From positions 1,248,001-1,312,000 of the forward strand of contig CAWDOD010000002.1 of NCBI GenBank assembly GCA_963803805.1: a DNA stretch of 64,000 bases, written 5' to 3'. Below the pieces are notes generated by a model, which was given only the letters and a program-made list of their open reading frames with translations, was not told where the DNA came from and ran no database searches. Position numbers and translations under genes: made by a program. This DNA is from an uncultured cyanobacterium. Its GTDB lineage: Bacteria > Cyanobacteriota > Cyanobacteriia > Cyanobacteriales > CAWCAG01. Shown in pieces: positions 40,999 to 44,535 of this stretch. Positions within the stretch are counted from its first letter, which is position 1. Each line of letters opens with the position of its first letter.

Positions 40999-42471
40999 CT
41001 AGAAAAGTTCTCCGAAGCCTTTTTTCTTTTTCCCTTTCTTCTTCTTTTTCTTGGAACCCCCTGAATAGCCACGGAAGCCAGGGCGAGGAGCATTCCCACC
41101 TATGCCACCAAACATTCCCCCCATATCGCCTCCCATACCACCCATTCCAGGCATTCCCATTCCGGGCATTCCTCCCCCCTGTCCCATTTGCTGCATCATG
41201 CCTCGCATCCGGGTAAAATCTTTGACTAATTTGCCGACATCGCTTTCTTTGAAGCCGGAACCTTTAGCGATGCGGCGGCGACGGCTGGGAGATTTGGCTA
41301 GTAAGTCAGGGTTTGACCTCTCTTCTGGGGTCATGGAGTTAATCATCGCCTCAGTACGCTTAAGTTGTACTTCCCCTTTTTCCAAGTCTGAACTACTCAA
41401 CTTGCCCATACCGGGAATCATCTTCATCAATCCCCCCAAAGAACCCATATTTTTCAAGAGGCGCATTTGTTTGAGGAAGTCATCAAAGCCAAATCTGGCT
41501 TCCATGATTTTGGCTTGCATTTCGGCAGCATCAGCAATATCAACTTCTTCCTGGGCTTTTTCTACCAGGGTTAGAACATCCCCCATACCCAAAATGCGAG
41601 AGGCCATACGGTCAGGATAAAAGGGTTGCAGGGCTTCTACTTTTTCTCCTACTCCCACAAATTTAATGGGTTGACCAGAAATGCGACGTACCGAAAGTGC
41701 CGCCCCCCCACGAGTATCTCCATCTAATTTGGTGAGAATTGCCCCGGTGATGCCGATTTGTTCGTGGAAGGTGTAGGTAAGGTTAGCGGCTTCTTGCCCT
41801 GTCATGGCATCTACAACCAGGAGAGTATCGTCAGGTTGAATCGTTTCTTTAATTTGCCCTAACTCCCCCATCATTTCTGGGTCAATTTGGAGTCTTCCGG
41901 CAGTGTCAATGATGACGGTATCAACACCCATTTCCTGGGCTTTCTCTACCCCTTGGCGGGCAATTTCTACCGGGTTAGCATCCGTACCCATTTCAAATAC
42001 AGGTACGTTAATTTGTTCTCCTAAAGTGACTAACTGATCAATAGCTGCTGGGCGGTAAATATCCGTAGCCACCATTAAGCAATCGCGGTTTTGCTTACGC
42101 AAATGTAGTGCTAGCTTAGCTGTGGCAGTGGTTTTTCCTGTACCTTGCAAACCTGCCATTAAAACTACAGTTGGTTTAGTTTCAGCTTGGGCGAGGGGAA
42201 CATTGGTTTCTCCCATCACCTTAACTAATTCATCATGAACAACTTTAATAAATTGCTGATCAGGACGTACCCCGGAAACTACTTCAGCCCCTTGGGCTTT
42301 ACTTTCTACCTCAGCGATAAAGTTCTTAACCACTTGGAGGTTAACATCAGCCGCTAAAAGGGCGCGGCGTACTTCTTTTAAGGCTTCTTGAATATTAGCT
42401 TGAGAAATTTTATCTTGACCGCGTAGCTTTTTCCAAGCATCCTCTAAACGGTCGGCTAGGGCATCAAACAT
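40999..42471 (-). CDS. ffh: Signal recognition particle protein Ffh
   Basis: GLQGTGKTT, DTAGRL and TKLDGDTRGG motifs; Met-rich M domain. Confidence 0.97.
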   Translation of the reverse strand: MFDALADRLEDAWKKLRGQDKISQANIQEALKEVRRALLAADVNLQVVKNFIAEVESKAQGAEVVSGVRPDQQFIKVVHDELVKVMGETNVPLAQAETKPTVVLMAGLQGTGKTTATAKLALHLRKQNRDCLMVATDIYRPAAIDQLVTLGEQINVPVFEMGTDANPVEIARQGVEKAQEMGVDTVIIDTAGRLQIDPEMMGELGQIKETIQPDDTLLVVDAMTGQEAANLTYTFHEQIGITGAILTKLDGDTRGGAALSVRRISGQPIKFVGVGEKVEALQPFYPDRMASRILGMGDVLTLVEKAQEEVDIADAAEMQAKIMEARFGFDDFLKQMRLLKNMGSLGGLMKMIPGMGKLSSSDLEKGEVQLKRTEAMINSMTPEERSNPDLLAKSPSRRRRIAKGSGFKESDVGKLVKDFTRMRGMMQQMGQGGGMPGMGMPGMGGMGGDMGGMFGGIGGNAPRPGFRGYSGGSKKKKKKGKKKKGFGELF

Positions 42472-42555: not shown

Positions 42556-43152
42556 TTAATTCAACTCGGAGTTGAACTCGTTGAAGGAACGCCTTTTCAA
42601 CTCCACTGACTCAGAACGAGGTAGGAGATCAAATACTTCCCGGAAAACACTATCAATGTCTTCAAACTTAGCTTGTCCAGTTTGATTAAAGACAATCTCA
42701 CGATTTTGATTTAGTAAGACAGTTTGAGGAATTGCCCCTTGGTAGTAATAACCTACTTCTTCAGGACTGTATTCAGCCTTGATCGGAATAGAATCGACAT
42801 TGATGGGAATAAAACTCGCTACTTTGCCGTAAAATCGCTGTAACTGAGAGATAACCTCAGAAAATCTTTTACAATCGCTGCTATCTTCTACATAAAAAAC
42901 TAACAGAGCAACTTTATCTCTTTGGAAAGATTCTACTAAGGTCATGCGAGGGGGGACTAAAGAGCCATTCCCGGCATAAAGAGCAAAGATATTGCCATCA
43001 AACCTGTCGTCTTCAAGCCCTGCTTTGGCTGAGGGGGTTCCGAAAAGCAAGAAACTGCTTAGCCCAGCTATGAGTATTATTGAGCAAAAACGAAAGCAAA
43101 TTTTTCTTAACTGAAGGTTATTTAGCCAGTGGTGCAACCGCGAAAAAATCAT
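42556..43152 (-). CDS. Thioredoxin-like thylakoid protein (putative photosystem I accumulation factor family)
   Basis: Signal/TM segment then DDRFDGNIFALYAGNGSLVPP...SSDCK...RRSFNEFNSEL. Start trimmed to ATG 43152 because the longer ORF overlaps the tRNA. Confidence 0.7.
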   Translation of the reverse strand: MIFSRLHHWLNNLQLRKICFRFCSIILIAGLSSFLLFGTPSAKAGLEDDRFDGNIFALYAGNGSLVPPRMTLVESFQRDKVALLVFYVEDSSDCKRFSEVISQLQRFYGKVASFIPINVDSIPIKAEYSPEEVGYYYQGAIPQTVLLNQNREIVFNQTGQAKFEDIDSVFREVFDLLPRSESVELKRRSFNEFNSELN

Positions 43153-43236
43153 AAGGTTCTTTTTACCAATTAAATCAGCTATTATTAATAGTACAGCTAG
43201 GGGCTGTGGCTCAGTTGGATAGAGCAAGCGCCTCCT

Positions 43237-44086
43237 GAACAATCGGGCCTCTTGGGGGAAACTCCAGGTAGTGAATGCGGTCAAATTCAAGGAAGCCTAA
43301 GTCTGTTTAAACAGAGAGGGTAATCTTGAGCCAAGCTTATATTTGTCTATATAGACAAGTTATTTGAAGGTGCAGAGACTGGTTGAATGAGAGCTAAAAA
43401 ATGATGGACTATGATGTCTCATCAAAAGTAGAGCAAAGAGGCATTCTGGCCGGGATGTTATTGGGTGCAGGCAGGAGAAATAAACAAAATTTCTATCTTC
43501 TAAACCTGAATTTGCCAGAGGAATATGTTCTATTTAAAAAGCAACTCCTTGAACAAATCATCCGTAAGCCAGTTAGTCTTCGGGAAAGAAAAACTAAAAA
43601 CGGTACTGCCTTAATACGCTTAGAGCCAAAGTTAATTCCCTTAACTAGGGTTTTGGTTAAAAAGTTTTATCAAGGAACAACTCCTAAAATTACGAGGAAG
43701 TTTCTTGGTCTTCTAACCCTTCCTAGTATCGCAATTTGGTTTATGGATAAAGGTTCTAAATCTTTTAAGAGAAAGAACGGAAAAATCCATAGCCTGGAAG
43801 TTAACTTCAATACCAATATCTGCCAAGCAGAAAACGAGTTGATAGTAGCTTATTTTGCTGAAGTTTGGGGTTTTAAGTGGGGATTAAGCCAAGGTAGAAA
43901 CGCTTACCGTTTAAGGATGGGGACGAAAGAAGGTAAAAGGTTTTTCCGTTTCCTTCATCCCTATATTCATCCCGCTATGCTCTACAAAATAGAAACCTCT
44001 TGTCAACATAACGGCCGCCACCTAAAAGAGTTTTGTTCTTATGGTGAAGGGATAGTCCAGAGAGTGGGGAAACTCACACAAATCTG
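43237..44086 (+). ncRNA. Group I self-splicing intron (IC3-like), 850 nt, inserted 3' of the CCU anticodon
   Basis: P1 CCU|GA:UCGGG with U.G at the 5' splice site; P2 with GAAA loop; P3 GCGGUC:GGCCGC (44013-44018); P4 UUCAAG:CUUGAG; R GCAGAGACUG; S AAGGGAUAGUCC; P8 CACC..GGUG with CCUAAA/UAUGG receptor; P9 GUGGG-GAAA-CUCAC; terminal omega-G at 44086. Confidence 0.92.
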
Positions 44087-44087
44087 A
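43401..44087 (+). CDS. Intron-encoded two-motif LAGLIDADG (LAGLIDADG_2-like) homing endonuclease/maturase, degenerate active sites
   Basis: Motif 1 ILAGMLLGAG, EEYVLFKK, motif 2 LTLPSIAIWFMDKG and C-terminal PYIHPAMLYKI. Basic protein lying inside the intron. Confidence 0.8.
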   Translation: MMDYDVSSKVEQRGILAGMLLGAGRRNKQNFYLLNLNLPEEYVLFKKQLLEQIIRKPVSLRERKTKNGTALIRLEPKLIPLTRVLVKKFYQGTTPKITRKFLGLLTLPSIAIWFMDKGSKSFKRKNGKIHSLEVNFNTNICQAENELIVAYFAEVWGFKWGLSQGRNAYRLRMGTKEGKRFFRFLHPYIHPAMLYKIETSCQHNGRHLKEFCSYGEGIVQRVGKLTQI

Positions 44088-44535
44088 AGCGCTAGGTCGC
44101 CGGTTCAAATCCGGCCAGTCCCGTTTTTTCAATGCTCAATGCTAAGTTATCTTGGTTTAGCCACTTAAGTTCAATCTAGTATAAGTAATAGTTTGTCTAA
44201 GTTCAGTTGGTTATTAAATCTTTTGAATTTACATAACTTCAACTTAAAATTTGTCAAGTCCCAAAAATTTCTCCAAAGGACGCATTTGTGTGGTTTAATT
44301 AGGAAATCAGAAAATTACACTGCTACGTTTTTGTCTAAAGTCAACATCAAATCTCTATAAGGTAGATAAATCGTTGGTTTTGATGCTATTTTTCCACAAA
44401 AGCATAGTGATAAGAAGGGCTAGGTCGAACAAATTTTGAGGCAATTTCAAAAGTTTTTTTGACAAATAAAGCGCTTTAAGTTAGAAGCAATTTGCTTGTG
44501 ACTTTTTTTGTCTATTCCATTTTTCTTCCTTGACA

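Follow-up and report, generated by a model that had tools for sequence, protein, structure and literature searches.

A LAGLIDADG protein without its catalytic acids in the group I intron of a cyanobacterial tRNA-Arg(CCU) gene, a putative splicing maturase under purifying selection

The stretch of DNA analysed here (the window; 64,000 nucleotides, positions 1,248,001 to 1,312,000 of contig CAWDOD010000002.1, assembly GCA_963803805.1) comes from an uncultured cyanobacterium of the order Cyanobacteriales and contains a tRNA-Arg(CCU) gene interrupted by a group I intron, in which an intact open reading frame (ORF) encodes a LAGLIDADG_2 protein with alanine and lysine in place of the two catalytic aspartates. 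Comparison of coding sequences showed that purifying selection on this ORF family is as strong after loss of the acids as before it, and by analogy with known systems the protein is, with moderate confidence, a putative splicing maturase of its own intron, kept by that selection. The gene, its intron and the protein are composed as follows, all on the + strand:

43200..43236: 5' exon of tRNA-Arg(CCU), with the anticodon CCU at its end (ARAGORN with intron option)
43237..44086: group I intron of 850 nt, starting after the anticodon U and with G as its last base (Rfam RF00028, homologues, intronless alleles)
43401..44087: intact LAGLIDADG_2 ORF of 228 aa, stop TGA at 44085-44087 (ORF list, Pfam, AlphaFold model, Foldseek)
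43467..43469: codon 23, GCA (Ala), catalytic position of motif 1 (G-M-L-L-G-A-G), equivalent to I-SceI D44 (profile alignment, model)
43749..43751: codon 117, AAA (Lys), catalytic position of motif 2 (W-F-M-D-K-G), equivalent to I-SceI D145 (profile alignment, model)
44087..44123: 3' exon of tRNA-Arg(CCU) (ARAGORN, exon matches in homologous loci)

The split tRNA gene and the protein encoded in its intron

With the intron option, ARAGORN called a tRNA-Arg(cct) with an 850-nt intron at genome coordinates C2:1291200-1292123, corresponding to window positions 43200-44123, and in intron mode this was the sole tRNA-Arg gene with a CCU anticodon among the 50 tRNA genes of the 5.3-Mb genome. Default ARAGORN returned zero tRNAs across the 64-kb window, the tRNA-Arg(CCU) gene being recovered only with intron-aware settings. 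Because standard tRNA finders miss the gene, genomes with this intron seem to have no tRNA-Arg(CCU) in routine annotation. Intron mode also proposed four more long-intron tRNA candidates (SeC with 1195 nt, Glu with 550, Val with 395 and Gln with 41), which may be false positives.

The match of the window intron to Rfam RF00028 is split by the ORF and for this reason scores 43.3 bits (E 2.5e-9), short of the gathering score of 50; three ORF-less homologues scored 56.7, 69.7 and 83.5 bits. A consensus structure built from 21 ORF-less homologues comprised 90 pairs, with compensatory changes in 29 of them. At the 5' splice site, the last U of the 5' exon pairs with a consensus G to form the U-G pair of P1, and the terminal G is position 44086. 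Contigs of other organisms run from 43236 straight into 44087; these represent intronless alleles and not splicing products, since the same joint occurs in a DNA run. In the ORF-less introns, the P7 5' strand and the P3 3' strand are separated by an optional hairpin (alignment columns 198-255; missing in one genome), and it is the loop of this hairpin that the ORF occupies in the ORF-bearing introns. Contigs from two salt-marsh RNA libraries cover 43379-43996 and 43366-43566 with about 98-100% identity, RNA-library contigs being no proof of transcription.

The genome holds a single LAGLIDADG_2 gene, and the genome-wide Rfam search found no second credible group I intron as a possible trans client of its product. 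The other Rfam group I match (27.4 bits, partial; C2:997698-997787, - strand) was discarded as spurious, lying inside an intact 370-aa ORF of a Rieske/VanA-type oxygenase.

Residues 13-181 of the ORF protein cover the whole Pfam PF03161 (LAGLIDADG_2) profile, positions 1-168 of 168, with 96.1 bits against a cut-off of 25 (E 2.9e-27); NCBIfam gave no match to the ORF protein, and in the phage collection the best relatives, in gut phages, were only 29-32% identical. In the family profile-to-PDB alignment, Ala23 falls on I-SceI D44 and Lys117 on I-SceI D145, the residue before the final Gly of the motif, both of which we take to be metal-binding residues. The AlphaFold model (mean predicted local distance difference test score (pLDDT) 86.6, predicted template-modelling score (pTM) 0.81) follows in its order of helices and strands the two-domain alpha-beta-beta-alpha-beta-beta-alpha fold, and its two LAGLIDADG helices, residues 9-21 and 107-117, have their C-terminal ends at the Ala23 and Lys117 positions. 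I-WcaI and I-SceI were the best Foldseek matches (template-modelling (TM) score 0.67-0.70) and, with the family profile, also the solved structures nearest in sequence (E 2.2e-11 to 1.3e-9). A preliminary description, made from the sequence alone, had read an intact frame with both catalytic acids replaced and had named a Pfam comparison and structure prediction as checks on the register; codons, I-SceI alignment and model agree in bearing out this reading.

The acids at the LAGLIDADG helix base are described as essential to catalysis in statements of PMC3384342 and PMC3173205. An active LAGLIDADG endonuclease has an acid at each helix end, where the window protein has Ala23 and Lys117; the residence of its gene in an intron at the would-be target site is that of a homing endonuclease. 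With both metal-binding aspartates replaced, the protein would no longer cut DNA and is inferred to be inactive as a nuclease. Two further arguments of the preliminary description carried less weight. Both codons do differ from an Asp codon (GAY) at two positions, but one of the differences in the Ala codon is synonymous, and the point says only that the acid loss is not very recent. The protein is strongly basic as described (pI 10.2, 40 K+R against 17 D+E), but members with both aspartates are equally basic, so that basicity is uninformative on the loss.

Loss of the acids across the family and selection on the gene

A word-indexed search yielded 155 relatives, and the 120 of them listed were all of cyanobacterial type with PF03161. 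Among these 120, aspartate at both positions (D/D) was found in 33, one acid was lost in 20 and both were lost in 67 (members termed dead below), with the surroundings of the motifs conserved. The closest homologues among those listed carry A/K, G/K and A/K (residues at motifs 1 and 2) at 82-87% identity, and the copy of a genome of the same genus is likewise A/K. A scan of the genome collection gave 56 loci, 53 of them with tRNA-Arg(CCU) exons on both sides and one with the 3' exon only, at a contig end. At the remaining two, L051:1315-2323 and L056:1-450, a D/D homologue with 56% and 52% identity to the window protein lies in a tRNA-Leu(UAA) intron of Pyrinomonadaceae (Acidobacteria) metagenome-assembled genomes, so that the ORF family is found in two different tRNA introns and in two phyla. 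When the scan loci, the window and the genomes of the relatives were combined and duplicates removed, 57 distinct ORFs in tRNA-Arg(CCU) introns were obtained, of which 11 keep both acids, 15 have lost one and 31 have lost both.

The history of the loss was followed on an outgroup-rooted FastTree tree of 176 sequences (152 ingroup) with parsimony counts of states; these counts are approximate, given a tree built on about 197 columns and with uncertain deep nodes. Parsimony places D/D at the ingroup root and requires at least 14 changes between both positions being acidic and not over the 152 tips, with site 1 changing state 34 times and site 2 26 times, against 14 changes for the median column. 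Since 21 of 24 outgroup LAGLIDADG_2 proteins are D/D and the motif neighbours G22, D116, G118 and W113 show zero changes among the 152 family members, the acid loss, as judged from these alignments, is not chance noise. Thirteen different residues occur at each catalytic position across the family, Trp, Val and Cys included. The replacements are nevertheless unevenly distributed, Lys or Arg occupying site 2 in 74 of 100 non-acidic tips and site 1 in only 13 of 95, and as Lys and Arg are each at least two nucleotide changes away from GAY, this excess at motif 2 suggests selection for a cation there.

The change counts per site in D/D tips (41) and in tips with both acids lost (84) were correlated with a Spearman coefficient of 0.73. 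Residues 36, 38, 108, 130, 139, 189, 192 and 195 are nearly fixed in D/D members but variable in dead ones; in the model, 36 stands at the end of strand 30-36 and 38 just past it, 130 and 139 lie in strand 128-140, and 189, 192 and 195 are near K196, which aligns with I-SceI K223. These sites are suggestive only of a partial relaxation of nuclease or DNA-specific residues in an otherwise conserved protein.

Selection was estimated as omega, the ratio of replacement (dN) to synonymous (dS) change, over residues 3-199, the C-terminal tail being left out of all these analyses. Between the window ORF and the same-genus copy, both A/K, 197 codons gave a dN of 0.068 and a dS of 0.372, hence an omega of 0.18 (bootstrap 95% interval 0.10-0.32; Fisher p 1.3e-10). 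By the Nei-Gojobori method, applied to pairs with dS of 0.05-1.5 only, median omega was 0.179 for pairs of ORFs with both acids lost (n=70) and 0.164 for D/D pairs (n=48). Maximum-likelihood (ML) estimates (GY+F3X4) are given below with the cost of omega = 1 in log-likelihood (lnL) units, these likelihood tests being approximate because the omega = 1 fits used a fixed kappa of 1.7:

D/D, 11 sequences: omega 0.182
One acid lost, 15 sequences: omega 0.186
Both acids lost, 31 sequences: omega 0.196; omega = 1 costs 558 lnL units
All-dead Q/R clade, 10 sequences: omega 0.196; omega = 1 worse by 82 lnL units
All-dead W/K clade, 5 sequences: omega 0.190; omega = 1 worse by 76 lnL units
All-dead x/C clade, 4 sequences: omega 0.233; omega = 1 worse by 52 lnL units

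The reading frame has been maintained as well, being full-length in 52 of 53 intron loci. The ORF is carried by 73 of 401 genomes of the order and its frame is split in only 2 of these 73. In four cyanobacterial families it is present in 11/11, 3/3, 2/2 and 19/25 genomes, and as the family with 11/11 retains it with Arg, Gln or Ser at site 2 in the members examined, the gene seems to have survived the loss of its nuclease through at least one family-level radiation.

Because the inactivated genes are not decaying, as judged from low omega and intact frames, a selected non-nuclease function of the acid-less ORF is well supported at the sequence level. The preliminary description had proposed retention for a non-nuclease role, to be checked on homologues and their dN/dS. 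Instead of close homologues that all keep D/D around a neutrally evolving copy, the close homologues proved to be dead, omega is 0.18 for the window copy and 0.19-0.23 in the all-dead clades, and omega = 1 is rejected there by 52-82 lnL units. Its interpretation is thus partly supported, in the retention for something other than DNA cleavage, the specific role being putative.

The putative maturase role and its alternatives

A further element of the locus bears on how such a protein would be made and used. At all 55 loci evaluated, the 22 nt that follow the P7 5' strand form 9-14 bp with the 3' end of the ORF (two of the 57 loci were skipped, the anchor pattern failing there), with a median stem energy of -12.8 kcal/mol against -5.4 for shuffled partners, and several compensatory variants are visible among the stem pairs of the loci. 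A Shine-Dalgarno (SD)-like GGAG or GAGAG on the 5' strand of the stem precedes the ORF start in the loci displayed. In the window, this stem, which closes the ORF loop, lies as follows (+ strand, both rows from pairing in homologous loci):

43381..43393: 5' strand of the closing stem; it includes an SD-like GAGAG (43389-43393), separated from the ATG by 7 nt
43996..44007: 3' strand of this stem, CCUCUUGUCAAC, inside codons 199-203

The start position itself varies: at 11 of the 57 loci (L002, L014, L017, L027, L029, L030, L034, L040, L054, L055 and L060, of which L054 is D/D), ATA replaces ATG with the same SD-like GGAG upstream, so that either ATA serves as a weak start codon there or the start lies elsewhere.

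In the proposed scheme, the ORF would go back to a homing endonuclease whose target was the anticodon region of tRNA-Arg(CCU) genes, and this ancestor may already have been bifunctional, like I-AniI. The putative maturase would bind its own group I intron RNA and help it to fold so that the sole tRNA-Arg(CCU) is spliced efficiently, and this efficiency should matter to the host because the intron interrupts its only gene for this tRNA. At motif 2, Lys or Arg might take the place of the lost metal ion beside the backbone phosphate. The stem containing the SD would restrict ribosome loading to the time before its 3' strand, at the 3' end of the ORF, is transcribed, and once formed it would join the core strands, drawing P7 and P3 together for the ribozyme to fold. 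The maturase assignment was drawn from the precedents discussed below, from a gene that has never left its intron and from the position of this intron in the sole tRNA-Arg(CCU) gene; what characterises a maturase of the bI3 type, namely location in an intron, loss of the acids (here both, one of them to Lys) and purifying selection after the loss, was found for the window protein.

Several observations weigh against a maturase. Of 401 genomes of the order, at least 67 show an ORF-less version of the intron by a contiguous match, with one further genome checked by hand. Being so common, these versions indicate that the ribozyme family has no inherent need of a protein; by eye, the window intron retains the core sequences conserved in ORF-less introns. 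The number of broken core pairs, an alignment-biased count, was about the same in D/D-bearing introns (6.4 of 61) as in those with a dead ORF (6.8 of 61). Extra positive charge was sought in the dead members and none was found, the median net charge being +17 after the loss and +18 in D/D members. The share of changes falling in beta-strands, 0.327 in dead members against 0.292, did not differ significantly (chi-square p 0.08), and as the beta-strands form the presumed DNA-binding saddle, DNA binding may still be under selection. Nor can acid loss separate RNA from DNA binding, since bI3 maturase still binds DNA. Lastly, the invariant D116 beside Lys117 may provide a residual metal site.

Two other candidate lines of evidence were dropped. 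The better core fit of ORF-less introns (1.3 against 6-7 of 61 broken pairs) is an artefact: the ORF-less set itself supplied the structure, and P2 and P6 of the window intron were cut short in the fixed-length alignment. A feedback through AGG codons was considered on finding that the window ORF uses AGG for 5 of its 15 Arg codons and the long ORFs of the genome for 12.9%, and was rejected as the value is only 9% across the 57 ORFs.

In its fullest form, the maturase proposal would make the family the first case in which a bacterial homing endonuclease turned repeatedly and convergently into a maturase dedicated to a tRNA intron, with the motif-2 Lys/Arg as a positively selected metal-free phosphate clamp, the SD-sequestering stem ordering translation before folding and splicing, and the sole tRNA-Arg(CCU) dependent on a protein from its own gene. 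This combination is put forward tentatively and is rather more doubtful than not.

An unlikely but serious alternative is that the protein acts as a cleavage-dead, sequence-specific DNA-binding factor on the tRNA-Arg(CCU) gene or the old homing site, in regulation or protection, and gives no help in splicing. The constraint pattern of D/D members is indeed mostly retained in dead ones, as expressed by the Spearman coefficient, and K196 is nearly invariant; against this, positions fixed in D/D members have become variable in dead ones, beta-strand residues 36, 38, 130 and 139 among them. The Lys/Arg preference at motif 2 suits a DNA phosphate contact as well as an RNA one. The old target, uninterrupted anticodon-stem DNA, is absent from this genome because the sole tRNA-Arg(CCU) copy is split by the intron. 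WhiA-type regulators are free-standing genes with an added C-terminal DNA-binding domain, whereas the window gene is still in its intron and encodes no second Pfam domain and a disordered tail. Two precedents favour this alternative: bI3 maturase is reported in PMC3173205 to bind the I-AniI DNA target with high affinity, and WhiA, at Foldseek ranks 9-10 with the window model, is mentioned in PMC3384342 as a LAGLIDADG fold without catalytic acids that serves as a DNA-binding regulator.

It is highly improbable that the protein is still a nuclease or nickase working through other residues such as D116. This residue is invariant in D/D and dead members alike, K196 is conserved, and the members with one acid lost (15 of 57) might keep partial activity, but both canonical metal ligands are gone from the window protein, one of them replaced by a cation, and the 13 residues seen at each position are unlike a relocated active site. 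According to PMC3173205, the same acid-to-Lys change abolished the activity of bI3.

Constraint on the RNA, that is on intron structure, or on the act of translation instead of on the protein is scarcely probable. Such constraint has some room, as the last ~10 codons of typical members share sequence with the closing stem, with the P3 3' strand and with P8, and the SD belongs to the conserved stem. Over the 197 codons compared, which exclude the tail, synonymous sites are nevertheless free (dS 0.37) and replacement sites are not (dN 0.07), the hairpin whose loop the ORF occupies is optional, being short or absent in introns that have no ORF, and if only an open frame were selected for, omega would be near 1.

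Finally, an ordinary homing-endonuclease gene decaying neutrally in the cycle of invasion, fixation and loss, with stops not yet acquired, has a next to negligible probability: loss of the nuclease after fixation is predicted by the cycle as presented in PMC3984707, a 1-nt insertion alters the last codons of the window copy and frameshifted copies exist in 2 of 73 genomes, but omega is 0.18-0.23 with neutrality rejected in every dead set tested, 52 of 53 loci have intact frames, as do 71 of 73 genomes, changes concentrate at the two catalytic positions between unchanging neighbours, and the ORF is retained across whole families.

Related systems and further features of the locus

The maturase reading leans most on bI3, the maturase of yeast mitochondrial cob intron 3 (PDB 2ab5), which like the window protein is an intron-encoded two-domain LAGLIDADG protein with a catalytic acid changed to Lys; PMC3173205 attributes the loss of its nuclease activity to a catalytic Glu-to-Lys change, and PMC3384342 contains the statement that other LAGLIDADG maturases have also lost nuclease activity. 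The bI3 maturase differs in that only one acid was lost, its host gene is mitochondrial and protein-coding and it works with Mrs1; it is structurally more distant from the window model (Foldseek rank 7, TM 0.48) than the I-SceI type (0.67-0.70), and its maturase activity is demonstrated where that of the window protein is only inferred. I-AniI, from the Aspergillus cob intron, is described in PMC3173205 and PMC3384342 as one LAGLIDADG protein combining homing with help in splicing its own intron, and it is the model for the proposed ancestor of the window family; unlike the window protein it keeps its catalytic acids, and it matches the model weakly (rank 21-27, TM ~0.5). I-SceI (1r7m) and I-WcaI (6x1j) belong to the same Pfam family as the window protein and have W-F-M-D-D-G as motif 2, but they are active enzymes of mitochondrial rRNA introns with both aspartates, where the window protein has Ala and Lys.

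The LAGLIDADG ORFs of coral and corallimorph cox1 introns lack the acids of both motifs in some lineages while Ka/Ks is <1, and the higher Ka of their degraded group is read in PMC5344465 as relaxed selection or decay. In contrast to these animal mitochondrial genes with raised Ka in the degraded group, the window family resides in a bacterial tRNA gene and shows equal omega in dead and intact members. Among bacteria, the LAGLIDADG protein from the group I intron of Thermotoga neapolitana 23S rRNA is credited with maturase-like activity in PMC3984707 (citing Mo et al. 2011); it was the sole bacterial intron LAGLIDADG with reported activity of this kind found in our literature searches, and comes from an rRNA intron of a hyperthermophile. 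I-Ssp6803I, named in PMC3384342 as the endonuclease of the cyanobacterial tRNA-fMet intron and present in the references of PMC3984707, is like the window ORF encoded in a group I intron of a cyanobacterial tRNA anticodon loop, but has the PD-(D/E)xK fold and is an active tetrameric nuclease.

Acid-less intron LAGLIDADG proteins under selection are thus already known, from the statements on yeast bI3 in PMC3173205 and on coral cox1 in PMC5344465. According to a passage of PMC5733544, reports of tRNA introns in cyanobacteria had been limited to tRNA-Leu and tRNA-fMet, and no cyanobacterial tRNA-Arg(CCU) intron with a LAGLIDADG ORF was found described in the full-text literature, subscription journals being outside its coverage. 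The apparent novelty lies in an I-SceI-type family in this intron, with many independent losses of the acids, a Lys/Arg preference at motif 2 and undiminished selection. The turn of a selfish DNA cutter into an RNA-folding helper has so far been studied mostly in a few fungal mitochondrial proteins, and the family offers natural replicates of it in bacteria, with D/D, half-dead and fully dead orthologues at one intron position and ORF-less introns of the same kind as built-in controls. Such a system can address whether the maturase function is ancestral or acquired, the role of the motif-2 Lys/Arg and the dependence of tRNA supply on an intron-encoded protein.

The C-terminal tail of the window protein has a separate origin:

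44007..44084, + strand: C-terminal tail, residues 203-228 (comparison with homologues' stops; model)

A 1-nt insertion near 44000-44004 shifts the frame of the window copy, so that translation of its last 26 residues runs on into the 3' half of the ribozyme, passing through the P3 3' strand (44013-44018), P8 (~44019-44046), J8/7 with the P7 3' strand (44047-44058) and P9 (44064-44077). Most family members stop at a TAA within ACCUAA of the P8 5' strand, ~59 nt before the intron end, and the equivalent TAA of the window (44023-44025) is out of frame; the same-genus copy ends at 216 aa with a TGA inside P8. That the window TGA straddles the 3' splice site (TG | A) follows from this lineage-specific frameshift. 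The tail is disordered in the AlphaFold model (pLDDT <50) and is an accident of the frameshift.

The ORF-less tRNA-Arg(CCU) introns occur in at least two core variants, which differ in the P5-P6 region (L093:1361-1603 in genome G168 and L068:1325-1583 in genome G049). The 243-nt variant of G168 breaks a BLAST match in two, and since it has no ORF, a split BLAST match does not always signal an inserted one.

On the opposite strand, a 244-aa ORF (42556-43290, -) covers the tRNA 5' exon together with the beginning of the intron. Its 42559-43104 part encodes a thioredoxin-like domain (PF13098, E 3e-9), and its true start probably lies downstream of the tRNA gene. Beyond it, the ORF at 40999-42471 (-) encodes a putative signal-recognition-particle GTPase Ffh, named by eye from its translation.

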